Shown piece after piece: positions 3,001 through 61,720 of a stretch of 64,000 nucleotides of DNA. Origin of the DNA: Bilabrum cf. latius (Eukaryota); the NCBI GenBank assembly GCA_965178125.1, contig OZ237737.1:1612001-1676000 (forward strand), given 5' to 3'. The notes under the pieces were generated by a model. It did no database searches. It was not told the DNA's origin and saw only the letters and a list, made by a program, of their open reading frames with translations. Positions within the stretch are counted from its first letter, which is position 1; the number at the start of each line of letters is the position of its first letter. Position numbers and translations under genes: made by a program.

Positions 3001-5799
3001 GGGTTCCATGCAGGGACTGCACCCGCATCTGACGACGATGACGAGGACCAGGACAGGCACCACGCCACGCTGCGGCTGCTCAGCGAGGGCCTGAACCCCT
3101 CCCGGCTGTCTCGGCCGGAGGACAACGTGCTGGTCCTCAAGCTGGGGGGCAAGATCGAGGAGGACGAGGCGGTGGGCGGCGCGGTGTTCCGGCCGGACGA
3201 GACGCAGGAGCGGCTAGAGGTGGAGCGCAAGGCCAGGGAGCGCCTGCCGCCTGCCGTCAAGAAGAGCCAGCCGAGGCAGTTTGGCCAGGCCCAGGCATTT
3301 GGCAAGGGGAGGCAAATCGTGCCCCCTAGGTCCCCCTTGCGCACCGACAGGTCGGCAGGCTCCGACGAGCGTGGCAAGAGCAGGCGAGCGAGGGCAAAGG
3401 GCAAGACCAGGTCACGGAAACCGCAGTGGAGGCCCGGGGGACCCGCTCAGGATCTCCGGCAACAGATGGAACAGCGCGAGAAGCGCCTGCAAGAGGCTGC
3501 AGCAGCGGCTGCGAAGAAAGAGGCCGAGCTGAAGGAGGCGCTGGGGTCCAACTACGAGGTGGCCAGGGGGCAGTACTTGGACAGCAAGTAGCGGGGGCGC
3601 AGGGGTGGCCAGGGGGAGGAGGAACCGCTGTCCCAGTCGCAGGTGCTGCTGCGGGCCGAGGCTTGGGGCAAGGAGAGGGGTCGCGCGGCGCAGCAGCAGC
3701 AAGAGGTGCGGGCGGGGCAGCGGCGCATGAAGGAGGCCGAGGACCGGTTCTGGCAGGCGGACGAAGGCAAGAAGATCGGATCGAGGCTCAGGCAGCAGCA
3801 AGCCCTCTCGGCCTACGTGGCTCCCTCGGCACAGATCTCGGGCCCAGCGCTAGGTGCCGCAGGGAGGGATGAGTTCAACCGAACGGCGCCAGCCAGCAGC
3901 CTGCGCGGGTCTGCGAGTGCGAGTGCGCTGTCTCGGCTGTCGCAGACGCAGCACAATCGGCTGTAGGCCAGCGTGGGCGCTGGCCGGCCGGGCGACGACT
4001 CGATCGGGAGCCAGTTCAGCCGCGCCGACCGCGAGCTGCTGGGTCCGGAACCTGGCCTTCCTCCCAAGCTGCAGCTGCCAACCCGGTCTCCTGGCCGGAC
4101 GGGCAGCGCTGGATTTGCTCTTGGTGCGGCATCTGCGGCGCGCGTTGATGCGCGCGCCTCTGCCAGTCGGCAGGGCGGGTCCCGGAGCGGGCTCGCGAGG
4201 GCAGGTGCGGGCGCTGTGCAAGGCCTTGGCCGCACGTCTCCCACTCCCCTGGGGCAGCCCCAGGGCCAGGGCAGGGGCAGGGGCCGGGGCAGGGGCAGAG
4301 GCAGGACGAGCCAGTCTAGGTCTCGCGGCAACCGGTCGGGTGGAGCACCTCCGCCTGGCCACCGAAGCCGTGTGAGTCGGCGCCAGCAGCAGGCACAGAA
4401 GCAGGCGTCGATGCGGCGGCGGGGCATCGACCCAGAGGCGCAGGCAAGGGAGAGGGCGCGGTTGGAAGAGGAGCGCATCCGAAGGGAGCGCATGCACGTG
4501 CCGGTGGAGGCCGGGGCCGTGAGCGGAGAGTTCGGGGATAGCACCATGAGGCGGCTGCTGGTGGCCACCGCTGCTCCCGGAGATGCGGCGGCTCGCGCGA
4601 GACCAGCAAGCCGCGGGGGCTCGTCGCATGGCGTGGCGCATCCGAGGACTGCGCCGGCCGGGGCGGCCCGTCCGCTGCTGACCGAGGCAGACGGTGGTCA
4701 GGTGAGGGAGCAGCAGTCGGCCGCGCCTCTCCCCGACCCCGGCCTGGTCCCAGACCCGCGGTCCTCGCTCCCTGCCACCACCCCCATGTGGAGAGGCACG
4801 CCCGTGTTCAGCGGGGCCGCCGATGCGGGCTCTCATGACCATCCCGCCGCGGGCGAGAGCCTGCAGACGGCCTCGCAGCGGTCTCGCGTGAAGCAGGCCC
4901 TGGCCGCGGGTGCAAGGGCCGGCTCGGCCTCCCCCACAGGCGACCAGGGGGCTGGCACTCCCGATGGCGGCGGCAAGCCTCCGTTGGTGGACCCGCTGAC
5001 CCGGTCCATGTCCTTCTCTCAGCTGCAGGGGGGCGAGAACCTTGCGCCTGTGGCAGAAGGTAATGAGGACGATGAGAAGGACAGCGCCAGGGGGGACGCT
5101 CCTAGCAGTGTGGCTGCGGCGCAATCGTCGCAGGGGCGTGGCGGCGATGACGTACATGGGCGCAAGGCCGACGGCGATGCCAAGGAGGACAAGGCCGACG
5201 GCGATGCCAAGGAGGACAAGGCCGACGGCGATGCCAAGGAGGACAAGGCCGACGGCGATGCCAAGGAGGACAAGGCCAACGGCGATGCCAAGGAGGACAA
5301 GGCCAACGGCGATGCCAAGGAGGACAAGGCCAACGGCGATGCCAAGGAGGACAAGGCCAACGGCGATGCCAAGGAGGACAAGGCCAACGGCGATGCCAAG
5401 GAGGACAAGGCCAACGGCGATGCCAAGGAGGACAAGGCCAACGGCGATGCCAAGGAGGACAAGGCCAACGGCGATGCCAAGGAGGACAAGGCCGAAGACA
5501 AGCCCGAGGTAGCTGCAGCCGCCGCCATCGCAGAGGCAGCTCCAGAAGGTGCCCAGGCGCTGATCGACGCAGTGCTGAGCGACCCAGCTGGTGCTCTCGC
5601 GGAAAAGCACGCCGAGGAGGACGCCATCGCTGCTGCTGCTGAGGAAGCGAGGGCACATGCTGCAGGGGGGCAGAGCGGTGGCAGTGCGGGACCCAAGAGT
5701 GCTGCGCAGCCTGGCATTTCGGCCGATCAGTTCTAGCAGCAGAAACTGGGAACTGAAGGACAGGCCGAGGGGAAGGGAGAGGGCAAGGACGAATCGTGA
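1..5799 (+). CDS. Large low-complexity hypothetical protein, 5'-truncated by the window edge; possible ARM-like repeat near 950-1170 and a C-terminal KA(D/N)GDAKED repeat
   Basis: Frame is open from position 1. ORFs 34..1827, 1834..3591, 3643..3966 and 3973..5736 share one frame and are separated only by TAG (1825, 3589, 3964, 5734). Read-through ends at TGA 5797-5799 (...DQF*QQKLGTEGQAEGKGEGKDES). Confidence 0.8.
5164..5487 (+). repeat. Coding minisatellite, 12 x 27 bp (aaggccRacggcgatgccaaggaggac)
   Basis: Directly visible: 4 units encode KADGDAKED, then 8 units encode KANGDAKED. Confidence 0.97.
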
Positions 5800-5946
5800 A
5801 TGGGCGTGTTGCCTGGGGGTGGGATTGAACATGCTGAAACGAAACACAATTTGAAAGTCATGGAATTAAGTGCAGAGGCATAGACCACAAGCATGTGCCC
5901 TAACTCAAGCACAAGCGCAGATGCACCATGCGCTCCCTCCCCACGA

Positions 5947-6906
5947 TCACCGCTTTCTCTCCCGCTTCCACCGAAACTGCGCAGGCAGACCACCCTTCGC
6001 GTCTGTAACTTTGACCCTGCTACCCTTCGTCCCCAGGGCCTTCTGGTGCTGCAGATGCGCCACCGCCCGCCCCAGCACCTTGGCTCGTCGGGTCCTGGCC
6101 TCTGCCTCCCGCACCACCTCCTGTCTGCGCACCGCCAGCTTGTCCGATGCTTTCTGACTCAGCCTGCGCCGCTTGGTGACCCGCCGAGTCTCTCGCATGA
6201 TAGATCGGGCTGCATCCTTGGAAATGGGGCCTTCACTGGAGCTGGGGGCCTCGGCTGAGGACGGGCCTGCGGACGCGCCGGGGCCAGACGAGGACTGCGA
6301 CCCGGCTCCGCTGATCACGCCGAGCTGCGCCAGACGCTAGGCGGCTTTCCCCTTGAACGCTGGAGCGTGTCGAATAGATGCAACTGCGGATTCATCGGCG
6401 ATCTGGACGTCGCCATGTGCGCCCACTTGTTGCTCGCTGCGCTTTCGTTTCCTGCCTCTCGCGATGCCTTCGTCAGCTCCTACGAATACTAGCCTAGTGC
6501 TCGGCTTCGGAGCGGCTGTGCCATGAATGCGATCTTTCAACCTCTATGCCTTCTTAAGATCCGCCTACCTCTTGGTGACTACGTATGCCTCGTCCTGTGT
6601 CTTCAGCAGTGCCAGCATGTCCTTGGACAACTTTGGCCCATCTCGCATAGCTTTGTGCACGCCATCCGCTGTTTGTCCCTTGACCATTCCAAAGTAAAAC
6701 TCATCTGGGTTGCGTTCCTGTGCTTTGCGCTGCAAGGCCTACTTTCTCTTCTGCTTCTTGTGGTGGTTTCGTGCTCTCTTAAGATAGTCCTTCTTTTTCT
6801 CGAGCAACCCAAGCTTTGCTCTGTGAGCTGGCTACGCACGTTCCTAATGCTCCCGAGATTGCACAGCATTTTTGAAAGCTGAAAATCCTCCAGATCCTTT
6901 CTGCAT
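5947..6906 (-). CDS. UTP11: U3 snoRNA-associated protein 11 (SSU processome), 319 aa with UAG=Gln
   Basis: ATG 6906 gives MQKGSGGFSAFKNAVQSREH*ERA*PAHRAKLGLLEKKKDYLKRA...RKAQERNPDEFYFGM...LLKTQD...FRWKRERKR, ending TGA 5947. Matches the Utp11 motifs ERxQP, LGLLEKKKDY, NPDEFY and TQD and the C-terminal WKxxRKR. Six in-frame TAGs: 6844, 6832, 6739, 6565, 6544, 6337. Confidence 0.95.
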
Positions 6907-7017
6907 GGTTCAATTTGCGTAGTTGCAGAAGCAAGAACCGGGGCACCACCGCAAAGTAACGTGCTGATTCCAACTGTTGCAAGACGTTGGGTGCATCCAC
7001 TCAAAACGCTAGTGAAC

Positions 7018-9167
7018 ATGGCCTCAATCGATGAAATGAAACAGTTAATGCTGAAGAGTTTGGAACATCGAGGTGTGCTGGGACAGATACGGGTTAGACA
7101 ACTGTTATTGGCTCTCTATTTCCAGTCATTGCTAGAATCTGTCAAGCGTTTCGATTTCCGTTCTCGTAACCGCAATGCACGAGCAGGCACAAGTTCGAGC
7201 TGCCGTATTCACGGCAATCGACGAGTAGGAGAGAGCGGACGGGGTTCACATGGAGAACCTGCGATTGTCAAAGCTGAAAGACTCCAAGCACGGTACGTTT
7301 CTGCAGCTGCAGGTATGGCTGGCATGATGCAACTAGTACTGGTACTGCTGATACAATCCCATGTGCAACACAATTCAATTTCGCAGGTATGCTGCTCTTG
7401 TCGATGGTCGACGACTTTTTAGGATTCTATGGCCTCAGTTACACCAGATCGTGCCTGCTGTCAGAAGCATAGATTGACGAGGAAACCGTGCAAGCTCGAC
7501 CGCAGATGCTGTCGCAACTGCCTTCAGCAAGTAATGATATGGATGATGGCAGCTACCCTGTCTTGCTGCGAGTGCTGGGAGCGGCGAGGGGGGTCGGGCA
7601 ATCTCAGCGCTCCGCTGCCGCTGCTGGCCCCGCCACGCCAGAGCGGTCTTCTGGGGCATTCAGGGGCGGTTTTCATGCCGAGTCCAAAACGCCTGATAGC
7701 CCAGATGATCCTTTGCGAAATACCGTTGGAAAAAAAGCATTTGGAGCCGGGCGGGCAGGTGCAGGATCAGATCTAGGACAGGCCGGGCAGGGCCCTCGGC
7801 TGCACAGCCCACCCGGTGCTGCTGCCACTGCTGGTGCGAGGGAGTATGAGGGGGAGGCAAGCGACATCCAGTATCGCGTTGGCACATCTCCAAAGACGCA
7901 TGGATCCTCGGGCACTGGAGCTGAGCGTGAGCGTGATGAGGGTGAAGGTGAGGGTGAAGCACCCCCTTCCGCGTCTGCAGCAATCGCCGGGCTGGCATCG
8001 CCGGGGGACTACGCCAGCGACTCGTTTGATGACTCCAGCGTGGGAGCAGGTGGCTCTCCGAGTCCGTATCGCCGTACTGACCGGGATCGTCGCGCCGCAG
8101 GCATTAGTGGTGGCACGGGCGCCGCAAGCGAAATGGGTGAGGACCCAACGGAGGATGGGTCTGGCGGTGCTGGTGCCGGTAGCAGGACGGCCCAGCTGGG
8201 TCTGAAGCTGGACCTTAGCTCACTTGGGGGTGGGTCTCCTTCTGGAGCCGGGCCTGAGGGAGATTCGGAGGATGCAGGTGAGAAGGAGAAAGAGAGGGGG
8301 CAGGGGCAGGGGCAGGAAGGGGCAGACGGCTCTGCTGCCACTACGGAGGAGGAAGAAGCTGCCTTGGCGGCCTAGCTGGCCCAAGTGCTGGGCACGAGCA
8401 AAGGACAGGTAAGTGGAGGTGGAGGGGGAGAGGGAGAGGGAGACGGGCCCAAGGCTGCTGATCCCCCCTAGCCGCCTGCATAGTCGGCCAAGCAGCTGCC
8501 TGCTGTCAGTCCGCCGGGCGGGGTCCCTGCCAGAGAGCAGCCGCCCAAGCAGGAGCCTGGGGCACATGAAGGAGGCGAGGATGGCGATGAGGATGACGAT
8601 GATTATGGGGACGATGACTATGACGATGATTTCGATGACGAGGAGGAAGTGCCGGATGAAATTGAAGACGAGGAAGAGGAAGGTGCAGCCGGTGGAGCGG
8701 GCAGCGGCGCGTTGGGCCAGGCTGGGGGCAGCAGCAGCAGATAGCGCTCGCCTGGTGCTTCTGGTGGCATGCCCGACGACAATGACCTTGCCCTTTCCCT
8801 TGGGGAGTCTCGCGACCTGGCTCAGTCGCTGGACGGTGATCTGTCCAGCAAGGAGGGAGAGGGCGAGGGCGAGGGCGGAAGCAAGGGAAGCGGGGCCTCG
8901 TCCTCTGAAGAAGTTAGGGACAGGGCAGCGCACGGGCAGGGGCTCAGCCCGGCGGGCTTCGGGGCCAGCCGACCTGGTACTACTAGCAGCGGCAGCGGCG
9001 TCAGCCATGCTGCGAACAATGGCCGGGAAGCAGAAGATGATGGGCCCCCCATCCCCGCGGGCAGGCTGGTGGAGCTGGTCGGGGACTTGCAGACAAGCAC
9101 CGTCCTGGAGAGCGAGAACCCGAGGTCGGCTGGGTTCGTGGAGGTGCCCAGAGGCGGGGGGGACTGA
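7018..9167 (+). CDS. CEP43: FOP/FGFR1OP-family centrosomal/basal-body protein (LisH + FOP dimerisation domain, long low-complexity tail), ~653 aa; exons 7018-7092, 7187-7292, 7387-9167
   Basis: Spliced N-terminus MASIDEMKQLMLKSLEHRGVLGQIR|AQVRAAVFTAIDE*ERADG...KHG|MLLLSMVDDFLGFYGLSYTRSCLLSEA*...YPVLLRVL matches FOP. Two 94-nt GT-AG introns. TAGs at 7226, 7470, 8373, 8469, 8481, 8742; stop TGA. Confidence 0.82.
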
Positions 9168-9330: not shown

Positions 9331-10410
9331 TCAGGTGGCCAGCTCTGGGTGGGCTGCCTCCACTGCATCGGCGGTCCCGTTGATCGCGGCACACGCGCCG
9401 CCCAGCTCCAGGTCCCACGTAGCCAGCGTGTCCCTGGCCCCTTGTCTGAAGTCCAAGATGCCCTTGAGCTGGTCGATGCCTGCCTCGAGCCGGCCCGCTG
9501 CGATCATCGAGGCCGCCACCTTCTCGGCGTCCTCCGTGCTGCTGGTGTTGATGATGCGGGCCAGCGAGTCCAGGCGGATGGTCCTGTAGACCGCCGAGCA
9601 CGCCGCCACGTTGTGCTCTTGCACGGCCCGGTCCAGTACCGTGGTTGTTCCCTCGATGCGGGCGTCCTGGTGGTCCGCCAGCAGTGCCCTGAACGTCTCC
9701 ACGTCCTCCTTGCGGATGAGCTGCTCCCTGTACATCTTCTCCAGCATGGCGTACTGGGGGATGCCCTCGCTGCGGCTGTCCTTGTAGATCTTGCCCATGA
9801 GGCGCTGCCGCTGCGGCCCCGCCCTCTCCAGGATGACGCACGTGGCGGCGTCCGCCAGCAGCTTGGTGCGCTCCATGGCCACGATCAAGGGGTCTCTGCT
9901 CAGCTCGTAGAACAGAGACGCCGCCTGCTGGAAATTTCGCCTGGCGTCCTGTACCTTGGCCCTGCACACTCTGTATCGCAGCTTGGTTGCGGCATCGTCC
10001 GACGACGACATGCAACGCGCGGCCTTCATAATGAAAGAGTCCGCGTTGCCAGAATCCTCCGCCTGCAGGAAATTCTCCGCCAGAGCAACATTATAATAAA
10101 ACTAATCCTTGGCTGGGACCGCTAGGGCCCGCGTGAACGCCAAAATACATCCCTGCACGTCAGACTTGGCCCATTTAGAATCGTAGAAAAACTTTCGCAC
10201 CTCCCAGTCCTCAGCTCCGACGGCTTCTCCGTGTGTTCGCATAGCCTCTAGGGCTGGCGTGCACGCAAGCTCGACTACTGCGGGCTTTGTTTCAATAAGT
10301 CGCCTGAGGTGTCCTACAAAGTGCATCACGATCTTCTTGACTGTCCCAACATCACCAAGAGTGCACGCATGCGCTACAAGCTTTCCAAGAGAATCACCAT
10401 CCTCCTCCAT
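9331..10410 (-). CDS. COPS4: COP9 signalosome subunit 4 (PCI domain), 359 aa
   Basis: Motifs LRYRVCRAKVQDARRNFQQAA, ILERAGPQRQRLMGKIYKD, LEKMY, TVLDRAVQEHN, AEKVAASMI..GRL...IDQ. ORFs 10102..10410 and 9331..10029 are joined in frame through TAG 10102; stop TGA. Confidence 0.9.
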
Positions 10411-10741
10411 TGCAAACTAATCAATCAACTCTTCGAATTTCTCGCGCTTGGCATCGTTTGACGGCAGCGTATCCACCTGCGATGGAGACGACCAACGCGA
10501 GAACGGGGCATAGACGCTCAGATAGAGATAGACTTCTTCAAAGAACTCCAGCGCGACTCAGCATTGTACATATCTGCTATCTTATTTCATACCTGGGCAA
10601 TAGCAGCGTCAACCATTTCAGTGGGCTTGAATATCTGCAGATGAAAAGCAAATTTTATTTTGGCTATGGTAGCGTGTAATTTAATCGAAAATCAGATCAC
10701 GATGTTGCAGCAAATCCTGCCCAAACTAGGCCGTTCACGCC

Positions 10742-13520
10742 ATGGCTGCCCAGGATCTGCGGGCTATTGTCGGAGATACGCACTACTTTGAGGAAACATT
10801 GGATGTGAGGTCCTTAATACGCATTGTCTTCAATCGCCTGCAATGAATAGCAGCTTTTCTTTGGCGTGAATCCGGGACACGCACACTGCTTGCAGCATCC
10901 AATCCGACTATTTTCTTCGATTCGCAGACTGAAAAGATCAAGAAACTCTTGGACAATGCCCAGCACTCCTCCGCCTCATCCATCTCTCTTGCGGAGAAGG
11001 TAGAGGGGATGAAGTACCTAACAGCCGTGAGACACCGGCAGATTGCTGATTTATCCTTATCTGCTTTTCGCGGCCAAAGATGTGTCCTGTCATAAGATGT
11101 GACCTCCACTGCACGCAGTTCATGGCTCGTGGGCTGGACGTATCTGACTTTTACGAGGACGTCATGAAGAACGTCATTGTGAGATCCGACTGGATCGCTA
11201 GCGTCCTACCATCCCTCCGTGCGTGCTTATTCCAGTTCAATTAGTCGCCAAGCATCCCGCCAACGCAGACAAAAAGCGTAGAGTTGAAGAAGTTTGTGTA
11301 CAACTACTTGGTATACCACGCCGTGAGACTGGGCCCTGGCCCTGGGAATCCCAGCACGCAACGCTTGGCCAACCGTCCCCCAACCCTTTGATGCGGCCTC
11401 TCGCGCCCGCCTTTTCCCTTTCTTTTCACGAGCAGGACACCAATGCAAAGTGCAGGGACCTCGCCATCATGTCCATCAACGCGTTCCAGCGTGACCTGGA
11501 CAACCCCTCCCAGGTGGTGCGCGCCCTGGCAGTGCAGGTCATGTGCAGCATCCGGTCCAAGGCCATCCTCACCATCCAGAACATGGCCGCCACCAAGTCC
11601 GCCCACGACACCTCCCCCTACGTCAGGAAGGCTGCGTGCGCCGCCGTGACCCGCATCTTCCAGCTGGACCCCGGCCAGAAGGACGCGCTCATCCCCATCC
11701 TCGAGAGGCTGCTGGAGGACAAGGCGGTCATGGTCCTCGGGTCCGCCATGCAGACGTGGAGCGACGTGTGCCCCGAGCGCATCGAGCTCATCCACCCCGT
11801 GTACCGGAAGTACTGCCGCGTGCTGGCGGACATCGACGAGTGGGGACAGGTGCAGACCATCGAGGCGCTCCTGAGGTACGCCAGGACCCAGTTCGCGGAC
11901 CCTGTCAGGGCCAAGAGGGAGCTGGAGGAGAGGATGGCGGCGGCTGCCAAGGCGAGGGGCAAGGGCAGGAAGAAGAGCAAGGGCAAGAAAAAGGGCAAGG
12001 GGAAGAAGAAGGGCAAGTCCTCCGGGTTCTACTCGTCGGACGAGGACTCTGACGAGGGCGCCGGGTCGGACGGCAGCGGGAGCGAGTCGGACGACTACTA
12101 CCCCGAGGAAGGGGAGGAGGGTGTGGTGACCCTGGACGCAGACCACCAGGCACTCGTCTCGGCCTGCGTGCCCCTCCTGCGGTCGCAGAACACTGCCGTG
12201 GTGCTGGCAGCCGCCAAGGTGTTCCAGTACCTGTCACCACGCAACCGGCTGGATGCCCAGAGGGTGGGCCGCTCGCTGGTGCGGTCCATGCGCGGGCACA
12301 GGGAGGTGCGGTACGTGATGCTCTCCAACATCGTGAGGCTGGCGGAGGAGAACCCCGGCATCTTCCGGCCGTACCTGAAGGACTTCTTCGTGGCCGACTC
12401 CGAGCCGGGGTTCGTCAAGTCCCGCAAGATCAAGGTCCTCGTGTCCCTGGCGCAGCTGGACAACGTGGCGCTGGTGCTGCACGAGTTCTCGAGGTACGTG
12501 CGCGACGACGACAAGTCCTTCGTCAAGGACTGCGTGCAGGCGGTCGCGCGCATCGCCAACAACCTGCCCGACGTGGCTGACCGAGTGCTCCGTGGGCTCA
12601 TGGGCCTCGTGACCACCAACTGCCCCGACGTGGTGGCGGAGGCCGTGGTGGTCATCCGGTAGCTGCTGCAGCAGCACCCGCAGCACGACTCGGTGATCCT
12701 GCGGCTGGCTCGCATGCTGCCCAGCATCAAGCACCCTAGCGCGCGCGCCGCCATCGTGTGGGTCGTCGGCGAGTTTCAGAAGAAGCCCGCGGTGGCGGCT
12801 GTGGCCCCCGACACGCTCCGTATGCTGGCCAAGTCCTTTCAGACCGAGGCGGGCGAAGTCAAGCAGCAGATCCTCAACCTCGCAGTCAAGGTTGGGCTCA
12901 GGCAGCCCGAGTCTCCCCCCGCCGGCCTGCTGATGCGATACGTGATGGAGCTCGCCCGGTTTGATTAGGACTACGACCTGCGGGATAGGGCCAGGCTGCT
13001 GCGGAGCATGGTGCTCTCGGAGGACGAGGCACTGCGCAAGCGGGCCGAGACGGTGGTCCTGGGCAGCAAGCCTCCCCCCGAGATCGAGACGGCGTTCAGC
13101 GGCAGCGGGCAGCCCCAGTTCGACATGGGCACTCTCTCCTTCACCGTGGGACACTCGGTCAAGGGATACCTGCCCATCCCCGAGTGGACGGAGGAGCCCA
13201 CGGGGGCGGACACGAGGGACCCCGAGCTCGCGGCGAAGAGGAACAGGGCCATGCGGCCGAGGGCGGCGGCGGCGGCGGCTGCGGACCACGGCTCGGGGTC
13301 GGACACGGACACGGACTCGAGCGGTTCGGATAGCGGCAGCGACTCTGGCAGCGATAGCGGAAGCGACTCCGGGTCGGGCAGCGACTCGGAGGACGGGTCC
13401 GGCAGCGACTCTGACGGAGAGGGCGGTGGGAGCGGGAGCGACAGTGGGAGTGGGAGCGGGAGCGATTCGGACGACGGCTCTAGCGATGACGATGACGATG
13501 ACGAGGACGAGGACTTCTGA
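10742..13520 (+). CDS. AP3B: AP-3 adaptor complex beta subunit, ~786 aa; exons 10742-10804, 10928-11026, 11119-11178, 11269-11322, 11436-13520
   Basis: Adaptin N-terminal motifs: GLDVSDFYEDVMKNV, VELKKFVYNYL, MSINAFQRDL, SPYVRKAA, IELIHPVYRKYCRVLADIDEWGQ, ARAAIVWVVGE, D*DYDLRDRAR. Four phase-0 GTGAG...CAG introns. TAGs at 12660 and 12966; stop TGA. Confidence 0.93.
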
Positions 13521-13837
13521 TCGCAGCGTTTTCGAGAGGGACTCGCCGCCGCCCGCTGATCCACCCCGCCCCGCGCCCCGTTCGATTTCTACCCCATGGC
13601 TGGCTATGCGCGTCTGTGCGTGTACCGGCAGGGGGGCGGCGCGCTTGGGCTGGCGTGAGAGTGGGTCGTGGCCTTCTTTCTATTTTTGTGTGGTACTCAT
13701 GCCATCGTCTGTGCGAAGTATGGACGTGGCAGGCGAAACAGGTTTATTCTTTTGTCTGGTGCGTGATCAAGGACAACACCGAGCGCTGCTGCTGCATGCC
13801 GCAGCCAGACATTCATTCAGCAGCCCCGCAAATGACA

Positions 13838-14821: not shown

Positions 14822-15027
14822 TTGCCACACAATCAGTCATCGGCCAACGTAGGGGGTTTTCGATTGCACGTAAAGCACGCACTACTTACTGGTTAAGTCA
14901 GTGACCTAGTTGTGTGACAGCAATCACTCGTTCAGGAGCTGGTTGGGCCATTTCTTTCAAATAGCCCTGGCACGGCTCATTTTGAATTTCTGTCATGTCC
15001 GCTTCGGGCAAAAAAAGCCTTACAACC

Positions 15028-41346: not shown

Positions 41347-41506
41347 TGCAAAATTGGCGGGAGGGGAGCGCTGTTTCGAGCTCCCTGGTCCATTCCGAGT
41401 CAACACAAAAGTTTTGAAATCATCGTGCATTTTGTTGTTTATTGCGTCGTTGATGTTATATGCCATGCTGGCACCATCCTGGACAACACAAGCAAGCCGC
41501 TCTTAC

Positions 41507-48500: not shown

Positions 48501-49382
48501 ATGACGGGAGAAAAGACACCGTATCTGATGAGGAAGAAGATTCCCGAGTACGACAAGGACAACCCGCCAGTCCCCGACTACGAGCCGGCAATCCCCAAAA
48601 AGCCCATCAAGTACAAGGATCCTGAAGTCAAGAAGATGCTCGACTCGCGACCGAAGCCAATGCATATCGGTGTGATCCCGAAGCCCTACGGCCGCCAGTC
48701 CAGCATCCCCGGAGCCGAGGTCATCTTCCTGACCGACGCGAAACACAAGGAGGTTTACTAGGACAGGACGACGTATAACCAGAAGCAGTTCCTGCCGAAG
48801 CACCGCAGGGACGAGGAAGAGCCGCGCCGCCCCATTGCGTTCGGCTCCCGTGGCCCGGACGACCGCGACAGGTTCACTAGGCACATTGAGACGGAGCGCT
48901 ACCGCGAGTCCATGCGGAGGGAGCTCAAGGCCACGGACAAGGCCTTCGAGGAGCGAGTGAAGCAGGTCCTCGCCGAGGACGAGGGCGCCGCTGGGGCAGC
49001 AGGCGGGCCTCCCAGTGCCACCACCGCGACGATGGGCCGCCGCCGCAAGGGCAAGGCGCGGGGCCCCCCTCACTTGATCGAGGAGCAGGAGAGGCAGGCG
49101 GAAGCAGAGGGCAAGTTTGGGGCCAAGGGGGTGGGCATGCGGGCGTGGACCACTGGGGACGTGGCGGCGCATGCGGCTCGTCGGGCCGGGGTGAAGGAGG
49201 GGAGGAGGGACCCGGCCGGCAGGCGGGTGGGGCCATACGACCTCGCTTCCACCGAGGTGGGGGCCATGGCTGTGGGGCTGCGGCCCAAGGTGCCCGAGCA
49301 CCGCGTGACTGCGGCCACGAGGCACTTCGAGGACGCGGGGCACTTGTTCGGGGGCGAGCACACGATGGTGGGCGTGGACTGA
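48501..49382 (+). CDS. Hypothetical protein (~293 aa), possibly flagellum-associated
   Basis: ORFs 48360..48761 and 48912..49382 are in frame, joined through TAG 48759 (KEVY*DRTTY...AFGSRGPDDRDRFTRHIETERYRESMRRE). Strong GC3 bias from 48501; stop TGA. Start uncertain. Confidence 0.7.
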
Positions 49383-52500: not shown

Positions 52501-53779
52501 GCCGGGGATGCTGCTGCCGGTGCCTGCCGCTGCGGCACCGGCGCGCTGTCTGCTGCCTGACCTGCACGTGTCGTGGGGGCAGCATTGCTCTGTTCAGCCC
52601 GCTGCTTCCTCTCCGCTAAGAGCCGGTCTACAAGGGCGTCCCGCTCCACGCGGCTCATGCCCAGCCGGCTCGCGGCGCTGCCTGCCAGGCCCACGCTGCT
52701 GCTGGCCCCCTCTGCTAGCCTGCCTGCCGGTGACGATCCGGTCGTTGAGACGGCAGCAGCCCGCGATTGAGATGCACTGCCATCATGGTCTGCCCCACCC
52801 GCCGTGCGTGCAGCACCGGAATCGCCCCGGGCTTGCACCAGGCCATCCGCGGCTGACAGCGCAGCGCCCAGGGCTGCATCGGCTGCCTCTGCGGATGCAG
52901 CCCGCCTTCCAGCCTCGTCCGACCTCGGTTCGACACCACCAGCTTCAAAGTCCCTGCGGCCAGCGCCCTGCACCAGCGAGGCAGGCCCCGAGCCACGCGT
53001 CGCCCCGTCGCCGTCCTCGCCCGGCAGGGAGCCCGTTGCTCTGGCGCTGGCGGGCTCGAAGGCTGGGGCGGAGGAGCGCCCGCCGGTGCGACTCAATGCA
53101 TCGCTACCTTGCAGTGGATGGCTGGCATCCGACGCCCCACTCGCGCTGTCGAGCCCGCTGCGATCGGCGGCGCCCTGGGTGTCTCCATCGTCGGCTGCCA
53201 TAGCGCTGAGCTCAGCAGCAGATGCCGACCCCTTTCCAGCAGACGACTCAAGGAGATGCCGAGAACCTGGCATACCTCCGATTGTGGCTCCTTGCAATGC
53301 TCCAGGAGCCGCAGTTTGCAGTCTTTTTTCGCGGTCTGTCGCGAATCCGCGAGCCTGTGCGCGCTCGGACGCCAGCTGGGCCAAAATCTCCTTCCTTCGC
53401 TCTTCCTGCGATAGTGTTAATAATTCGTGTATGATCTTGAGTGCACATGCATGCTTTTCTGATCTGTCTAACTCGGTATTCTCCGACCGAAATGCTACAA
53501 TTTGCACCGTGCATGGTTGGTCTTACTGAGATCACTGGTCTTGAGGGACGGCCGGTTCCTCCAGTCGGTGTTGGGATTTGCACCACATCTTCTGCTAAAC
53601 AAAGAAAACTTGCACCGAAAAGGGAACTTATTGGCATTGTCTGTGGCCTGACTCCGCAGACTCGAATCACCGGCCATCTTACCCTCTTTTGGGTCAGTGC
53701 TTCGATGTTTACGAGCCAAAACAGATGTTGCTCGTTGTATTTCGCGTTCTACTAGCTCGAGGGTGTTGTCGGGTTCCAT
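49557..53779 (-). CDS. Charged coiled-coil protein with ~9 (C/H)TFxPxI-type repeats, ~1,336 aa; exons 53779-53683, 53591-53527, 53405-49557
   Basis: Repeats HTFSPRL, CTFKPRL, LRFQPAI, HSFQPRI, CTFKPDI, CTFRPTL, CPFQP, CTFQPKT. One TAG at 50661 in a Gln-rich context (RARQQ*RALQQAKQ). Two GTAAGA...GCAG introns (91 and 121 nt) restore an ATG; stop TGA. Confidence 0.78.
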
Positions 53780-53895
53780 TTCAGAAACTAATCGCGCAAT
53801 GTTCGATTTTGCCAACGGTAGGGAAGTTGCGAGTAGTTACAAGCCGCTCAGTACGATATTAATTGCCTCGGCGATTGAGCCACAGCCACTGCAGC

Positions 53896-56019
53896 ATGCC
53901 ACGGACTCTTCTCGGAGGCATGAAACGTGGCAGGGCGACTTTTGATCCTACTAAAGGCAGTGGGATGCGGCCGAGTTATGAGAAGCTGCCACAGAAGCGC
54001 TCCAGACAACCAGCATTCTCCATGGCGTCTCACGCTCTGAGGATCGCCAAGGTCCTCCAGCATAAGCTTGGAAGCACTCATGCGATCATGAACGGAGTAG
54101 CAGACCACGTGGAATTGAAAAGGGTCGCCAAGATTGGTGTACCAGCGCTTAGTTCTGGCGGTACACCAGTTGCTAGTGCAGCATCGCCGGCTGTGCGGGC
54201 GGTAGAACCGCACCCGAAAATGGTGGGCAGCCAGGGCGCGTTCGACCTTGTGCACGAGTTTCTGTCTGAAGTTATTTGTGGCGGCGCATCAGACTCTCTT
54301 CTGCTCGTCGGGCCTCGAGGCAGCGGCAAGACGGCCGTCCTAGAGTGCGCGCTCCGAGCAGTTGCCGACGAGGCGAGCAGACGTGGATCCAGCGCCCAGC
54401 AGCCCGCGGCAGCTGGGTCGGAAGGACCCCTGCAGGTCGTTCGTCTGCACGGAAGCACAGTCGGCGACGATGCGTCCGCAGTGCGGGAGATTTCTCGCCA
54501 GCTGGCCCTGGACCAGGAGGTAGAGGCCGCCGGGCTGCAGGCCCAGGCCCATTCCGAGGGCTCCTCGGGGGAGCGTGGATCCGCCACTGGGGCAGCCTCA
54601 CGGGGACCGGGAGCAGCTCGGCGGCAGCTGTACGAGCAGTACGTCGAGTTCGTGGTGGGGGCTCTGCGGGACGGGAGGCGCGGGGGGCGGCCGGTGCTGC
54701 TGGTGATCGACGAGTTCGACGTGTTCGCGAGGGGCTCGAGGCAGACGCTGCTGTACACGCTGCTGGACCTGACGCAGTCGCACTCGGCTCAGTTCGGGAT
54801 CATCGGCGTATCGGCTCGGCTGGACGTGGTGGAGCTGCTGGAGAAGCGGCTGCGGTCCCGGTTCTCCCACCGGCGCGTGTTCCTCGGCCCCCCTGGATCG
54901 GAGGAGGAGTGCCTGCAGCTGGCAGCGCAGGGGCTGGGCTTGCATGTGCTGGAGGAGGATGGGTCCACGTCACAGGGCGAGGAGGAGGGCGAGGAGGAGG
55001 GTCGAAGCAAGCGCAGGCGCGCTGGGGCGGCCGGCCCTGGCCCAACCTGCGTTGCGGGGGTGGACTGGCCTGCGTTTGCCAGCCGCCACAACACGCAAGT
55101 GGCTCAGGCGCTGGGGAACAGATAGGTGCAGGATTTCCTGCGGCGCTGCTACCGGCTGGGCAGATCGAGGGGCTGGATATGGAGGTGGCTGCGGGTGGCA
55201 GTGGCGGAGGGGGCGAGGGCTTGCCGGGAGGAGGAGAGGAGGAGGGGGCGGGGACAAGGACAAGGGCGAGGGGGGAGTGGGGGGGACAGCGGGGCCTCGG
55301 CATTACAGAGGGCAACTAGCAGCAGCAAGGCTAGCAGTAGCAGCAGCAGTAGCAGTAGCAGTAGTAGCAGTAGCAGTAGCAGTAGCAGTAGCAGCAGCAG
55401 CAGCAGCAATAGTCCTGCTGATCAAGCCGGCAGTGATGACCAAGCCCTTGTGACGAGTGCGGTCCTTCTCCGAGCCGCGGAGCAGTGCTGCCAGGACCCG
55501 CGACTGCTGCTGGCCAGCTCGGCACCCATGGGATCCGCCATGCTGCTGCTGGCCATGGCACGGGTGGAGGACTCGCTGGAGGCCGGGGCCACGTACACGC
55601 TGGCTCGCGCGCATCACGAGTACCTCGCGTTCGCGGGGCGGGAGGGGGCCAGCTCGCGGCCCATCGGCATGTCCCTGGCCGTGCGCGAGCTCGCGCGGCT
55701 GCTGGAGCAGGGTCTCATTGAGACGGTGGGTGCAGCGGCGCACGTGGCTGCCACCGGTGTGGTCCCCCTCGAGGGGGGTGGGGCGGGCGTGGCGGGGACT
55801 GGCAAGGGGGGTGCAGGCAAGGGCAAGGGCAAGGGCAAGGCGGGGGCTGGCGCGGGGAGGACCAGGATGATGGGTGCTTCGGATGCGGCGGCCGTGCCTC
55901 TGGAGCTGCAGCCGCTTCGGCTGGCCGTGGAGCCAGTGGCCCTCCGCGCTTTGGTGAGGGACGGGCGGCTGCCGCTGCCCTCGGATGCGAAGAACTGGGC
56001 TCTCGGTGGGGGATACTGA
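53896..56019 (+). CDS. ORC4: Origin recognition complex subunit 4 (AAA+), ~707 aa
   Basis: Walker A SLLLVGPRGSGKT, Walker B VLLVIDEFDVFA, then RQTLLYTLLD and RLDVVELLEKRLRSRFSHRRVF. One TAG at 55123; stop TGA. Start 53896 or 53920. Confidence 0.9.
55318..55407 (+). repeat. (AGC/AGT)n coding microsatellite, poly-Ser inside ORC4
   Basis: Directly visible; about 28 Ser codons in the ORC4 frame. Confidence 0.9.
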
Positions 56020-56425: not shown

Positions 56426-57421
56426 TCAATTCCTGAAGTGGATGATCTGGTGCGAGGGCGAGAGCACCTCGGTGTGTTCCTGGCACTGGAGCTTCTCGGC
56501 GGGCTGCGGGTTGACCTGCCACTTGGGCTGCACGGACTGCCCCTGTCCCTCCAGGATCATCTTGGTGAACTCGCAGGGCTTCTCGGGGTACGTGGAGCAC
56601 CCGTTGCACCCGTAGCACTCGAGGGTCGTGTAGGCCCACGGCTGCTTGGCCAGCCGGGGGTTGGCCGCCTGCTGGGTGGTGGTGGCTCCCGTCTGCCGAG
56701 AGGTGGACACAACGGCCCAGCTCTCGGGCCCTGTCCGGGTCATGTTCCCGAAGATGACGTCCCCGGGCTGCGCCCCGATGGGCTCAGAGGCGAGGGCTCC
56801 CGCCTTGAGCGTGACGTACCACGACCGCACGGCCCAGCCGGACTGGCCGAACCCGGATGGGTACTGCAGCACTGGCTGAATGATATCGAAATCAGCCTAT
56901 GGCTCAGGATCGACCTTTGGGATCCAGTCGACGTTCTGGAGGCCGGTGAACAGGTAAAGAACCTGAGGATCGGCAGAGGGCGCGTCCGGCACGCTGAAGT
57001 AGCCTGTGAAAATGTCGAACGTATCGGGGCTCTCCGTCTTATACGCAGTGTACTGCTCCCAGCCATCATAATCCTGCGAAAAAATCCAATCATACAAAGG
57101 AGCTACACATGGGAGGGCAGCAGCAATGTGATGACGCACTGGAACTGATCATCGAAATCTGTGGCTCACTGCCGGCAGCCCGCCAAGCATTGGGATCCCG
57201 CCGAGGGATGGCGCGCAATGCGGGTACTCGAATTGGGTGCCATTAGGGAAGGTCAAACGGATGGTAGACTCCAGCTCTTCCACGTTCGTTCCGCTTGGGA
57301 TCTCGCGAACGCAATCTTTGCGAACGAGGCCGACCCGAGGGACAGGCACGTGAGTCTCTGCGAACCGGGAAGCAGCTGCCAATGCACCGAGTGCGGCAAC
57401 AATAGAGGTAAACGTGCGCAT
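56426..57421 (-). CDS. Secreted beta-rich hypothetical protein (~299 aa); exons 57421-57170, 57073-56426
   Basis: Signal-like MRTFTSIVAALGALAAAS. One 96-nt phase-0 GTGAG...CGCAG intron. Conserved-looking FSVPDAP...LYLFTGLQN...*ADFDIIQPVLQY...W...SWY. TAG at 56897; stop TGA. Confidence 0.8.
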
Positions 57422-57570: not shown

Positions 57571-59067
57571 ATGATGATTCTTCTCAATGTGGCAGCACTG
57601 GCGGCTGCTGGCTTGCTTACAAGCGCCAAGGCTGCGTTCGATCCGCCGATCCCGAGCAAGCAGCAGTTAAAGTGGATGGATTGGGAAGTAGGAGCCATGA
57701 TAACCTACTCGATGCAAACGTACAGTCACAGTATGAAGCAGGGCGACGTCGTCCCTGCAACTCGGTTCACGCCCGTGCAGACGGCCTTCACAGATACTTG
57801 GGTCGATGCCGCACGTTCGTTCGGGGCCAAGTACGCGGTTGCAGTGTTTGACCATTTCAGTGGCTTCGTCGGGTGGCCCACCAATGTTTCTGGGTACGAG
57901 TACGGCGTTCGACAGGCGACAGGCTGGCGCGGCGGGAATGGGGATTACGTTGCAGACTTCATTTAGAGTTGCCAGGCGGGGGGAATCGCTCCCGGAGCGT
58001 ACTACAGCCTCCACAACAACTGGTACATGGACGTGGAGAGTTTCCACACCAAAGATCCTTCCAAGCAGCAGGCCTACAACGCGATCGTGATGCAGCATGT
58101 CCGGGAGCTCTTCGACCCGGCTGGCCCGTACGGCGCGCATTGGGAGGAGGTCTGGTTCGACGCGGGCATCGGGGCCACAGAGTACAACGACACTGCGCCG
58201 GTGGGGCCGCTGGTGGACCAGCTGCAGCCGGATTCCATCCTGCACTCGACCTCGCCCTACGCCTCCCGCAACGGCGTGCGCTGGGTGGGAAACGAGAACG
58301 CGATCACCCCGCTGCCCAACTGGCTCTCGGTGCAGGACGCGGCGCAGTGCGGGCAGTCCACGCTGGGCGTCCCGCAGGGCACAGTGTTCTGCCCTCCGTC
58401 CTGCGACACCGTGCTGCGGGAGCACTACTGGTTCTGGAAGAACGGCACCGCGGGTACCATCAAGTCCACGCGGGAGCTCGTGGGCGAGTACGTCTCATCG
58501 GTGGGCAGGGGCTGCACTCTCATCATGAACATCAACCCGGACCCCACGGGGACGGTGCCCGCCGCTGACGTGCAGGCATACGAGGCCTTTGGACGGGCCG
58601 TGCAGCTGCTCTTCGGCCCCCAGTCCCGTGTGCAGCAGTGGGACAGCCCAGCCCTCTCCCCGCAGCCATGGGCGGGCGGGCTGCTCGGCGTGGAGCTGGC
58701 CGTGCAGGGTGGGGGAAGCGGTGCGCTCACCAACGCGTCCATCGTGCTGCAGGAGGACCTTGGAATGTTCGGGCAGCGCGTGGCTGAGGTGAATGTCAGC
58801 GTGCTGGTCTAGCAGCACAAGCAGCAGCAGCGCCAGCACGAGGCTGCTGCAGGGCACACGGAGGGCCAGCAGTGGTAGAGCTGGTCGCAGACGAGCACCA
58901 TCGCGCACAAGCGGATCCTGCTCATGCCGCAGGCTATGGGTGGGGCCGACGTGCAGGCCATTCGCGTGTCGATCAAGCCCGTCGAGGGTACCGCGGCGCC
59001 CGGTGCGCTGCGGAGCGTCTCGCTACAGAACCACAGCGGCGAGGATGCCCTGCGTGTGCTGCCGTGA
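57571..59067 (+). CDS. Secreted alpha-L-fucosidase (glycoside hydrolase family 29), 498 aa
   Basis: Signal peptide, then PSKQQLKWMDWE, DHFSGFVGWPT, GDYVADFI*SC, nucleophile motif EVWFDAG, VRWVGNE, CDTVLREHYWFW, SVGRGCTLIMNINPDPTG, and the C-terminal beta domain QEDL..FGQRV...W*SWSQTSTIAHKRIL. TAGs at 57964, 58810, 58876; stop TGA 59065-59067. Confidence 0.9.
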
Positions 59068-59225
59068 GGACAGGGACCATTGCGGCGAGGATGCCCTGCG
59101 TGTGCTGCCGTGAGGACAGGGACCATTGCGGCGAGGATGCCCTGCGTGTGCTGCCGTGAGGACAGGGACCATTGCGGCGAGGATGCCCTGCGTGTGCTGC
59201 CGTGAGCATCCTGTGGACAGGGACC
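59036..59225 (+). repeat. 46-bp tandem repeat, 3 perfect copies plus a 4th with a short insertion, spanning the fucosidase stop codon
   Basis: Unit gcggcgaggatgccctgcgtgtgctgccgtgaggacagggaccatt starts at 59036, 59082, 59128 and 59174. Confidence 0.95.
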
Positions 59226-59363
59226 GACCAACATGGTGGCTAGCAAGGCTGGTCTCGTTTGCTTATTGAATGAATGCTTGTTCAGTGTAGCTAGTTCCAT
59301 CTTTTCGTCGCGCAGGTCATCCAAAGCCTGCTTCCTCTGTGCAAGTGGGTCACTGTATCCCGC

Positions 59364-60630
59364 TCATGTCCTGCCGTCTGAAGACTCGTCTTGGCTACTG
59401 CCCGCCGCATGACCCCCGCCGGCAGTGGGCTTGCTCCCCTGCCCTGCGTAGTCCTCCGGGGCCCCTTCCCTCCTCCCGATGGCGTCGTGTCTCATCTTCT
59501 TCCTCTGCGCCCGCACCTGGATCTTGAGCATCTCGAAGGCCAGCATGCTCACCCCGAACAGTGCCCCCACAACGACCATGCGGGGCACCAGCCCGGCCCA
59601 CAGAGCCATGAAGCCCTCTGCCTTGGTCACCTTCTTAAAGCAGTCCACCAGGCCGTCGTACTTGGCCGCCTGCTTGCCCTGCACCCTCGTCTTGATCACG
59701 TCCATGGGTGTCACCAGCCCGCTGCCCAGCGAGCCCGCCACCGCGCCCGCCGTGAAGGTGGCCAGCACCTGCTGCGTGTTTGACAGCTCCGTCTGCCCCG
59801 CTGGCAGCTGCGCCTTGAACCTCTCCTGGATGGCCGCCGCCGTCATGGCGTACCCGGGGAACATGATGACGGAGAACGGTATGTCACGCAGCAGGGTGAT
59901 GTGCACCCCGCGGTACAGCCCCGTGAGCCCCAGCTCCGACACAGCCTCTATGGTGGTGCCTGTGGCCGACTCCTGCATGTGAATCTTCGATACTTCCATA
60001 GGATTCGTCGCAATGCACTGCGCGAGCCCAGCACTCGCCCCCGCCAGCACCTGCTGCAGCACAGAGAGCTGCGACCCGTGCCCGGCCCGCTGGTTGCTGG
60101 CCGTCATCCAGTCCCTCATGATGTCGTTGACGCCGAGCTTGATGGCCTTCTCGGGGGTGACACCGATCAGGTTGGGGAACAGGCCCCGGTAGAACGCAGC
60201 GGCCCTGCCCTCGCTGTAGACCAGCCGGGCCACCTGCATGGGACCCATGCCTGCAGGGGGCGGAGGCGAGGCGAGGCGAGGGGAGTTGGGGGGAGAGGTG
60301 AATGGAGGGGGGGGGGGGTTCGGTGGGGTGCCAGTGGGGCGGGGAGGAGCGGTTTCGGAGTGGGAGGGGGATGTAACAGGCAGGCACTTGTCAGTGGAAC
60401 AGAGAGCCGAACGGCAGCCGCTCGCCCCCACGTATTGCTCGCCGCTCACCGGTGCCCATCATCCTCGTCTTGATCGTGTCCATCGGGAAAATCACGCTTG
60501 TGCCTATCACACCCGCGAGCCCCCCTACCACGATCTTGTACTGCCAAGCCACTGGTTCATCCCGAAGCTCCGACTTCTAACTCCCTGCCTCCGGGGCATC
60601 TTTCACTAGTGGCGCCGCTGGCTACACCAT
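59364..60630 (-). CDS. Mitochondrial carrier (SLC25; glutamate or aspartate/glutamate carrier-like), ~355 aa; exons 60630-60450, 60250-59364
   Basis: Three carrier signatures (FPMDTIKTR, NPMEVSKIH, TPMDVIKTR) plus YRGLFPNLIGVTPEKAIKL and LLRDIPFS. One 199-nt GTGAG...GCAG intron. TAGs at codons 3 and 18 (60622, 60577); stop TGA. Confidence 0.9.
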
Positions 60631-61231
60631 AACGTGCAAAGAGTCGCGTGAAGTGCCACCGCACGCCAAATTGCAGCTGCAAGAGACTTATCCGATCTAC
60701 GAGCAGCGGGCGAAAGAACTACACATACCAATACATTAGCATCGCTCAGTTGGTAGGGATGAAAATCACTGCCAGTGGGCAAACATTTCGGCCGCACCAC
60801 CTCAAGAAGGGCGCGTATAACGCAGATGTCTGGAGGGAATTCAGGCCACCTTTTCGCCCGAAAATGATGTAAAAACAACGTAATCATGCATACATTGGGG
60901 GTGGGAGGACATCAACCTGAGAAGGCACCATATACAGCGCAAGCGGTTGTGGCCCAAGTCATCAGGCGCTTGAATGCACAAGAAATAAGCTTAACTGAGA
61001 GGAATCAGTAAGGCCGAGGCTACCTTACCAAAGTATACGGATAAAAGCAGGCGAAAATTCGAATAAAACTGGAAAATGCACCCGAAATTGCCCACAGATC
61101 ACTCCCCGCGAGTTCACTTCGGCACATGCAGCGCATTGTAGCGCACGCACTCATCCGTTCGGCATCGTCATTCAATCCTGTGCACCACCCCAAATCAGCG
61201 GATCAGCACCCGCGTCACTAAGCATACCACA

Positions 61232-61720
61232 ATGTCTAGTATTTCAGCATCCTAGAGGCTTGCTCGAGGGACCAGAACCAACACCGTTAAGAGTTATTTT
61301 GGTGCGCTGGACGACCCGCGAATCGCAGATGAGGGGGCCGATGTAAAACCGAAGCCGTACAAACGATCGGTAGGAGCGTATGCCGCGGATGCATTGCAGC
61401 ATGGCGAGCTCATGCCCCCGAAGCCGGCGCCAGAGCCGGAAGAGGTCCCACCACCGGAGGAAGAGGACCCGAGGGCGGGCTTGCCGCCACCGTCAATGAC
61501 GACTTCTCAGTCCGCGAAGGAATACATCGAGGCAATGAAGAAGCACACAGCTGTTTCATATGACCCAGAGGATCGCTTCAGCGAGCCGCCAACCTCAAGC
61601 ATGGTGACGGGCTGGGGCGCGCGCAAGGCCCCGCGCGAGCGCTGTCGGCACCCAAAGGTGATCTCAGAGGTGGCCAAGGCGCATGCTTAGCTCATGGCCA
61701 TGCACTCCCAGCACAGCTGA
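61232..61720 (+). CDS. Small protein (~162 aa) with a P.ERF..P.TSS...GW motif, resembling FAM183/SPMIP-type flagellar microtubule inner proteins
   Basis: MSSISAS*RLARG...DPEDRFSEPPTSSMVTGW...AKAHA*LMAMHSQHS then TGA. TAGs at 61253 and 61688. Start and family assignment are tentative. Confidence 0.55.

Follow-up and report, generated by a model that had tools for sequence, protein, structure and literature searches.

The stretch of DNA analysed here, hereafter the window, comprises the 64,000 nucleotides (nt) between positions 1,612,001 and 1,676,000 of contig OZ237737.1 in the Bilabrum cf. latius assembly GCA_965178125.1. The subject of this analysis is the genetic code in which its genes are written, and in particular the meaning of the triplets TAG, TAA and TGA (UAG, UAA and UGA in mRNA), the first of which occurs inside reading frames throughout the window. 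All positions given below are those of the window, counted from its first letter.

Genes and transcripts of the window

The window has a GC content of 63%, and the GC content at third codon positions (GC3) of its coding sequence lies between 0.6 and 0.86. When frames were opened with TGA as the only stop, lengths of 5370, 2130, 1932, 1755 and 1324 codons were reached, while the longest frame obtained if TAG also stops was 1148 codons. The set of proteins encoded in these frames is that of an ordinary eukaryotic nucleus, with a SKI2-type helicase, ORC4, AP-3 beta adaptin, a FOP-domain protein, UTP11 and COP9 signalosome subunit 4, together with an alpha-L-fucosidase, a mitochondrial carrier and a FAM183/SPMIP-like ciliary protein. 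The genes are as follows.

1–5799, plus strand: gene 1, a low-complexity protein of 1932 codons with its 5' end outside the window; four TAG, no TAA; stop TGA at 5797–5799.
5947–6906, minus strand: UTP11 (U3 small nucleolar ribonucleoprotein, or snoRNP, protein 11), 319 codons; six TAG, no TAA; stop TGA at 5947–5949.
7018–9167, plus strand: FOP-dimerisation-domain protein, with exons 7018–7091, 7186–7291 and 7386–9167 and GT..AG introns of 94 nt; five TAG and no TAA in the stop-to-stop frame 7278–9167; stop TGA at 9165–9167.
9331–10557, minus strand: COP9 signalosome subunit 4 (CSN4, PCI domain); two TAG, no TAA; stop TGA at 9331–9333.
10862–13520, plus strand: AP-3 beta adaptin, 5' end not reached, with exons up to 11026, 11119–11178, 11269–11322 and 11436–13520; three TAG in the frame 11148–13520 and no TAA in the exons; stop TGA at 13518–13520.
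14986–20253, plus strand: frame of 1755 codons, family unknown; seven TAG, no TAA; stop TGA at 20251–20253.
20808–36920, minus strand: putative giant membrane protein of 5370 codons (the 16-kb gene); 38 TAG, no TAA, 155 CAG, 58 CAA, GC3 0.62; stop TGA at 20808–20810.
38833–41466, minus strand: coiled-coil-like protein of 877 codons; ten TAG in the stop-to-stop frame; stop TGA at 38833–38835.
41507–47899, minus strand: SKI2-type RNA helicase (DEAD, Helicase_C and DSHCT domains); six TAG, no TAA; stop TGA at 41507–41509.
48270–49382, plus strand: frame of 370 codons, no family, strong coding signal; stop TGA at 49380–49382.
49557–53531, minus strand: Arg/Glu-rich protein of 1324 codons; one TAG; stop TGA at 49557–49559.
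53893–56019, plus strand: ORC4-like AAA ATPase; one TAG; stop TGA at 56017–56019.
56426–57148, minus strand: frame of 240 codons with a weak, below-cut-off match to Peptidase_A4; stop TGA at 56426–56428.
57571–59067, plus strand: alpha-L-fucosidase; TAA at 57409, upstream of the start; stop TGA at 59065–59067.
59364–60687, minus strand: mitochondrial carrier, with the last-exon frame at 59364–60458 and a likely upstream exon frame at 60391–60687; neither TAG nor TAA; stop TGA at 59364–59366.
61232–61720, plus strand: FAM183/SPMIP-like ciliary protein of 162 codons; in-frame TAG past the Met; stop TGA at 61718–61720.
62651–64000, plus strand: acidic low-complexity protein with its 3' end outside the window; one TAG, no TAA.

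Transcripts were represented by contigs from three public runs of two studies (hereafter run contigs), which are presumed to be RNA and were compared with the contigs of the best-matching DNA run. In the FOP-like and AP-3 beta genes, contigs of the three runs bridged five GT..AG intervals of 90–113 nt, joins that were absent from the contigs of the DNA run, so that the simplest reading of the bridging contigs is spliced mRNA. The spliced contigs and the ordinary nuclear proteins thus mark the window as nuclear DNA of a flagellated protist, compact and intron-bearing. TAG-bearing genes were covered by spliced run contigs with no differences, as was UTP11 (0 differences from the window over 5934–6911), and therefore the TAGs are not edited away. 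A scan of the window and of the two related metagenome contigs introduced below (L001 and L002) detected no tRNA gene, and no Rfam family reached the gathering score in the window or in L001.

The run contigs of UTP11 end approximately 5 nt from its ATG and 13–47 nt beyond its TGA (window 5900–6911), and a FOP-like run contig begins 5 nt ahead of the ATG (7013–7018). The untranslated regions (UTRs) look extremely short, with the caveat that contig ends are unreliable as transcript ends.

TAG as a codon and the missing TAA

Two sets of reading frames were counted, namely 13 conservatively trimmed gene cores amounting to 16,395 codons and, separately, 15 stop-to-stop frames. The cores contain 78 TAG, 610 CAG and 119 CAA, with UAG making up 9.7% of Gln codons (78/807), and not a single TAA or TGA. 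Likewise, the four largest frames hold 55 TAG and no TAA when left untrimmed (5370 + 2130 + 1932 + 1755 = 11,187 codons). In the stop-to-stop frames we counted 94 TAG and nine TAA, all nine within the first 134 codons of the frame and each either before the first plausible Met or inside an adjacent gene. TAA is found only upstream of the Met at 41466 in the 877-codon gene, as the third codon of the frame (53525) and ahead of any Met in the Arg/Glu-rich gene, at 53596 and 53860 upstream of the Met at 53893 in the ORC4-like frame, and at three sites (60986, 60992 and 61064), all upstream of the Met at 61232, in the FAM183/SPMIP-like frame. The TAA at 11093–11095 in the AP-3 beta gene is intronic. 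The original prediction, which was made from the window alone and had reported about 93 sense TAGs with no in-frame TAA, is in line with these counts.

The deficit of TAA is large by either of two expectations. If TAR codons (R, purine) behaved like CAR codons, with a CAA share of 0.163 among 78 TAR codons, 15.2 TAA would be expected in the cores (P(0) = 9e-7), whereas a neutral expectation, taken from the 145 TAA among 81,923 triplets in off-frame reading of the core stretches, amounts to 29 (P(0) = 2.5e-13). The 16-kb gene by itself, where the absence of TAA despite a lower GC content had already been pointed out, gave P(0 TAA) = 5.7e-6 with 38 TAG and a CAA share of 0.27. Chance as the cause of the absence is thereby excluded.

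A further data set was provided by metagenome contigs of a second species. A search of Joint Genome Institute (JGI) metagenome contigs with the database protein fragment P0290 yielded L001 (12,584 bp, 59% GC) and L002 (4,579 bp), the latter 99.6–99.9% identical to the former. L001 carries the same trio of neighbours as window positions 1–9167, with protein identities of 51% for the FOP-like protein, 73% for UTP11 and 62% for the orthologue of gene 1, a frame of 3114 codons that contains 33 TAG and no TAA. Over the whole of its 3,841 in-frame codons, L001 has 39 TAG, 102 CAG and 42 CAA, and neither TAA nor TGA, at a GC3 of 0.56 and with CAA making up 29% of CAR codons. Its off-frame triplets include 71 TAA among 19,193, from which 14.2 would be expected in frame (P = 6.7e-7), and about 16–17 TAA would be expected from its CAA:CAG ratio.

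These figures bear directly on the ordinary code in which both UAR codons are Gln (NCBI table 6) and TAA is merely rare through high GC. Such a code would account for TGA being the sole stop seen, as in table 6 organisms (18/18 ends, within the sample), and the coding GC3 of the window does make A-ending codons a minority. However, the A-ending members of other two-fold R boxes are common (CAA 16%, GAA 19%, AAA 19% and TTA 15% of their pairs in the window), and a TAG:TAA ratio of 78:0 stands against a CAG:CAA ratio of 610:119, where about 15 TAA are predicted. GC bias is not what removes TAA, since L001 lacks it too, with 29–35% of its CAR, GAR and AAR codons A-ending. UAA and UAG side by side at Gln positions, the mark of table 6, were not found in either species (78 + 39 TAG and 0 + 0 TAA), and TAA accounts for at most 2.5% of TAR codons at the 95% level (n = 117). 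We therefore regard table 6 as very unlikely here. The argument of the original prediction that UAA is no ordinary Gln codon masked by GC bias, and that the meanings of UAG and UAA are decoupled, is upheld by both the window statistics and L001.

Taken together, the exclusion of TAA from reading frames far exceeds any prediction from base composition, both in the window organism and in the related species, and UAA in frames is under strong purifying selection. This absence of UAA beyond composition, the feature expected of a code that reassigns UAG only, was observed in 0/16,395 codons of the window and 0/3,841 of L001, with P from 1e-6 to 1e-13.

With regard to the amino acid encoded by TAG, in-frame UAG was found at positions where homologues have Gln. 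Residue 25 of UTP11 is TAG in a column that is Q in 146/146 aligned homologues. Among the 33 well-aligned codon pairs in which TAG in either the window or L001 could be compared with the other species, 20 face CAG and one faces CAA, with any other residue occurring at most three times. Moreover, Q is present at window TAG sites, four in total, in the database fragments P0003 (99% identical), P0289 (93%) and P0290 (66%), and the CAG of the window at position 21485 is replaced by TAG in a diverged copy among the run contigs. In AP-3 beta, Q is the commonest residue in two TAG columns (28/61 and 19/61). At the level of sequence comparison, we consider the reading of TAG as glutamine, in free exchange with CAG, to be settled.

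TAG positions common to the aligned genes of the window and L001 were not found among the 39 L001 TAGs examined, and TAG<->CAG turnover seems to be rapid on the scale of the divergence between these species.

A different assignment of TAG, to Lys, Glu, Leu or Tyr as in other lineages, would fit the homologues that mostly have K or E at residues 21, 56 and 121 of UTP11, as well as residue 151 of CSN4, which is K in 33/45. It is at odds with the invariant Q column, with the 21/33 orthologous pairs that are CAG or CAA and with the Q of close relatives at four TAG sites, and is in our judgement highly improbable. The TAG columns of UTP11 other than that of residue 25 are variable, with K, E or Q/A/S as the commonest residues, and 12 canonical Q columns of UTP11 vary just as much, their Q share averaging 0.24. 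The internal repeats of the 16-kb gene were too diverged for assigning TAG, since its six pairs comprised one CAG, one GAG and four others.

We also considered whether the in-frame TAGs could be pseudogene lesions, assembly errors or edited mRNA sites in an organism with the standard code. Public catalogues do cut genes at TAG, as a standard-code caller would: the fragments P0355 and P0289 begin or end beside window TAG sites. Against this, between 78 and 94 TAGs are spread over at least 14 conserved genes without TGA or TAA lesions or frameshifts, the letters agree in four run sets with the TAGs kept in spliced contigs, and the second species repeats the pattern, TAG and CAG exchanging in both directions. 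An artefact of this kind is barely credible.

The UTP11 of this lineage is present in public protein catalogues (P0355, P0289 and P0290) as fragments only, begun or ended at TAG positions. These broken genes were called with the standard or a bacterial code. Because standard-code callers break genes at TAG, and the catalogues already hold such fragments, the genes of this lineage are shattered by routine calling, and both assemblies and metagenome bins need annotation with TAG = Gln.

Gene ends and the standing of UGA and UAA

Sixteen gene ends could be defined in the window, and TGA was found at 16/16. For this purpose, the ends of open reading frames (ORFs) were judged by a codon-usage score over the last 60 codons, and a sliding coding-score scan was also run. 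The codon-usage score added three ends to those previously listed, namely 49380 (plus strand), 49557 (minus strand) and 56426 (minus strand), all TGA. The original prediction had counted 17 gene ends, all TGA: each of the 13 coordinates it listed is indeed a TGA closing a long frame (13/13), and the total obtained here is 16, a seventeenth end not having been located. With the two complete genes of L001 also ending in TGA (2/2), its proposal of UGA as the near-sole terminator holds in both species. UGA is a true stop, as it adjoins the conserved C-termini of UTP11 and CSN4 and lies just after the DSHCT domain of SKI2. Specifically, the UTP11 TGA comes immediately after the conserved C-terminal ...KRERKR, that of CSN4 lies at most one residue from the C-termini of homologues, and that of SKI2 six residues beyond the end of the DSHCT model.

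None of the TAA-terminated ORFs of the window was convincingly coding up to its end, the two best scores over the last 60 codons (12.0 and 11.8) lying below most accepted gene ends. As candidate gene ends, the TAA-ended ORF at 10847–11095 (plus strand) was rejected since it enters the intron 11027–11118, which is spliced out in the run contigs, and the ORF at 35995–36210 (plus strand) has 71 codons and runs antisense to the 16-kb gene. The TAA at 38729 (minus strand), flagged by the sliding scan as having coding signal upstream only, was a false positive, a frame of 32 codons scored via an overlapping real frame.

In a context-dependent code, of the kind known from Condylostoma, Blastocrithidia and Amoebophrya-Kv, stops are sense internally and terminate only near the 3' end, and both TAG and TAA may still end some genes. 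Such a code draws some weight from the AP-3 beta tree, which places the organism in a clade resembling SAR (stramenopiles, alveolates and rhizarians), and from the ambiguous code of one syndinean alveolate (PMC12005148). In addition, some genes have a TAG a few codons ahead of the TGA (20236–20238 and 61700–61702). However, several stops in frame, which characterize ambiguous codes, were not observed, with no in-frame TGA or TAA in the 16,395 + 3,841 codons, approximately 20,000, whereas the genes of Amoebophrya Kv carry all three, UAA being 58% of in-frame stops (PMC12005148). Furthermore, the three C-termini anchored by homologues (UTP11, CSN4 and SKI2) end at TGA and not at TAG. A context-dependent code is thus unlikely to a marked degree.

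Based on these results, we consider it highly probable that the nuclear code of the organism assigns UAG to Gln and no amino acid to UAA, with UGA as the terminator in practice. Several observations weigh against this assignment. Residue 21 of UTP11, which is TAG, is K in 96/146 homologues, and residue 121, also TAG, is E in 71/135; and 12 of the 33 well-aligned TAG pairs between the window and L001 face residues other than Gln. As for termination, just 18 gene ends were sampled, none of them from ribosomal protein genes or other highly expressed genes; most are TGA by construction of the frame, with only three anchored by homologue C-termini (UTP11, CSN4 and SKI2); and a TAA share of up to 15–17% of stops is still compatible with the data at 95%, the upper bounds being 17% for 0/16 window ends and 15% for 0/18 when L001 is included. 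Occasional termination at TAG, and hence an ambiguous code, may also occur.

In standard-code eukaryotes that are GC-rich, TAA still accounts for roughly 10–50% of stops, and in many organisms TAA stops concentrate in highly expressed genes. Set against that range, the absence of TAA from 18 ends is mildly surprising; the sampled genes are long and probably weakly expressed. If the code is as proposed above, we see close to an even chance that UAA still works as a stop and is seldom used. An effectively unassigned UAA, with eRF1 moved towards UGA-only recognition, is a serious possibility that we place appreciably short of even, and an intermediate or context-dependent role for UAA is improbable.

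A mechanism consistent with a UAG-only change can be outlined. UAG would be decoded by a tRNA-Gln(CUA), which a single mutation separates from tRNA-Gln(CUG), and, as C34 of such a tRNA would be unable to pair with A, UAA would be left unread; a tRNA with anticodon UUA is predicted to be absent. Recognition of UAG by eRF1 would have been lost or weakened, leaving no effective competition at UAG. With no tRNA for UAA, an in-frame TAA would be harmful and be purged, which would be the reason why CAG and TAG turn over freely while no TAG->TAA or CAA->TAA changes are seen. The argument from the CUA anticodon has been made for Iotanema and the rhizarian exLh (PMC5304391). The stronger proposal, of a eukaryotic nuclear code that leaves UAA truly unassigned, with no tRNA reading it, an effectively UGA-specific eRF1 and a lineage that is stable half-way from the standard to the UAR = Gln code, is possible, and we advance it with more doubt than confidence.

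Comparison with known codes and placement of the lineage

The coupling of UAG and UAA is treated as a constraint arising from the single release factor eRF1, and to our knowledge only a handful of eukaryotes have different meanings for the two codons. In Oligohymenophorea sp. PL0344, UAA and UAG reportedly encode Lys and Glu. Here, the UAR codons are split in a GC-rich, compact, non-ciliate-looking lineage of at least two species, with UGA rather than UAA terminating. This raises the questions of whether eRF1 dropped UAG alone or both UAR codons, of whether UAA then became unassigned, and of the route by which table 6 codes originate. If UAA is truly unassigned, the lineage would be the first natural case of a nuclear stop codon caught in the 'codon disappearance' step, with UAG captured before UAA.

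The sense-codon table is the same as that of Iotanema spirale (UAG-only Gln; NCBI table 15 pattern), and the kind of code is therefore already known. In this member of the Fornicata, UAG is Gln and makes up about 8% of Gln codons, while UAA and UGA are stops, with UAA predominant (Panek et al. 2017, PMC5304391). The likeness extends to UAG alone being reassigned, and to Gln, to UAA never being sense, to tRNA-Gln(CUA) as the predicted decoder and to UAG being a minority Gln codon (about 8% there and 9.7% here). The two differ in that UAA is the main terminator in Iotanema, whereas here UAA was found at 0/16 (+2) ends and UGA at all of them, and in that Iotanema is an anaerobic metamonad known from its transcriptome, in contrast to the GC-rich, compact and intron-bearing genome considered here, which groups with SAR in one gene tree.

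Some phyllopharyngean ciliates also reassign UAG without UAA, to Gln in two lineages, and such UAG-only changes have had independent, repeated origins (McGowan et al. 2024, PMC11687900). UAA is the main stop in those ciliates, the reverse of the situation in the window, whose organism is not obviously a ciliate. The UAR = Gln code of table 6 is listed for many ciliates, dasycladalean and other ulvophytes, hexamitin diplomonads, Streblomastix and Amoeboaphelidium (PMC5304391, PMC11687900); these share with the window UAG as Gln and UGA as the only working terminator, but UAA, which is also Gln there, is absent from frames here. The Amoeboaphelidium genomes have a GC content of approximately 40% (PMC10608142), compared with 63% in the window, and annotated Amoeboaphelidium proteins were absent from the matches, so that this genus was rejected as the source of the DNA. 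A split between UAA and UAG is likewise given for the rhizarian exLh, where UAG is Leu (PMC5304391), and for Oligohymenophorea sp. PL0344, where the two codons encode different amino acids (PMC10553269); the amino acid differs from that of the window in the former, and the latter uses both as sense codons. A non-ciliate alveolate with non-standard stops, probably UAR = Gln, is Amoebophrya sp. ex Karlodinium veneficum, which differs in being AT-rich, with all three stops in frame (UAA commonest, 58%) and contextual termination (PMC12005148); its AT-richness and in-frame stops led to its rejection as the source of the window. A full-text literature search, which did not cover supplements, found no description of a GC-rich non-ciliate with UAG-only Gln.

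Concerning the position of the lineage, the best named matches were a green alga for CSN4 (39% identity), a partial Symbiodinium-labelled protein (51%) and Phytophthora (42%) for AP-3 beta, and oomycetes and diatoms for SKI2 (46–51%), with no close named relative in the best-match lists of SKI2 and CSN4. In a FastTree tree of the single gene AP-3 beta, built from 55 rows hand-picked from 120 listed matches, the query fell in a 16-row clade with 100% support that has one Symbiodinium-labelled partial member and adjoins the stramenopiles. The lineage is possibly SAR-affiliated, judging from this tree. Scans of genome contigs with the UTP11 alignment and with CSN4 found no relative, and neither did the window's last gene in a metagenome scan. 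Full-length relatives at 45–56% identity are catalogued as complete proteins, which hints that they use the standard code.

Further observations concern individual genes. In the C-terminal part of gene 1 (window 5400–5700), approximately 13 near-perfect GDAKEDKA(D/N) peptide repeats follow in a row, and this array is missing from the L001 orthologue, as judged on the viewed portion of its translation. The acidic, Ser/Gly/Asp-rich tail of AP-3 beta (13004–13670) has a summed contig depth of 200–860 in all four runs, and many false joints begin there; the jump in depth arises because low-complexity GAC/GAT/AGC repeats are common to many other loci. Such repeats are probably also the reason why many sequencing runs matched over only a small share.

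The translation of the 16-kb gene contains a Cys-rich stretch and C-terminal hydrophobic stretches, which are suggestive of putative membrane spans, and no Pfam match was obtained for the protein of 5370 codons. Over the 3' part of this gene (21168–24999), the runs X1, X6 and X7 have, in addition to the exact copy, contigs that are 5–8% diverged from the window, with a depth approximately 3–5 times as high. Within 27 placeable rows, the diverged copies have 13 changes at third codon positions, and this part of the gene seems to be either a multi-copy family or co-existing diverged haplotypes.

The SKI2 stop (41507–41509) lies just 40 nt upstream of the next ATG on the same strand (41466), so that SKI2 and its 877-codon neighbour have either overlapping UTRs or one common transcript. 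The N-terminus of the fucosidase looks like a putative signal peptide. At the other end of this gene (59020–59160), the last codons, the TGA and approximately 30 nt downstream form a tandem array of about three copies with a unit of approximately 45 nt, in which the stop codon itself is duplicated.

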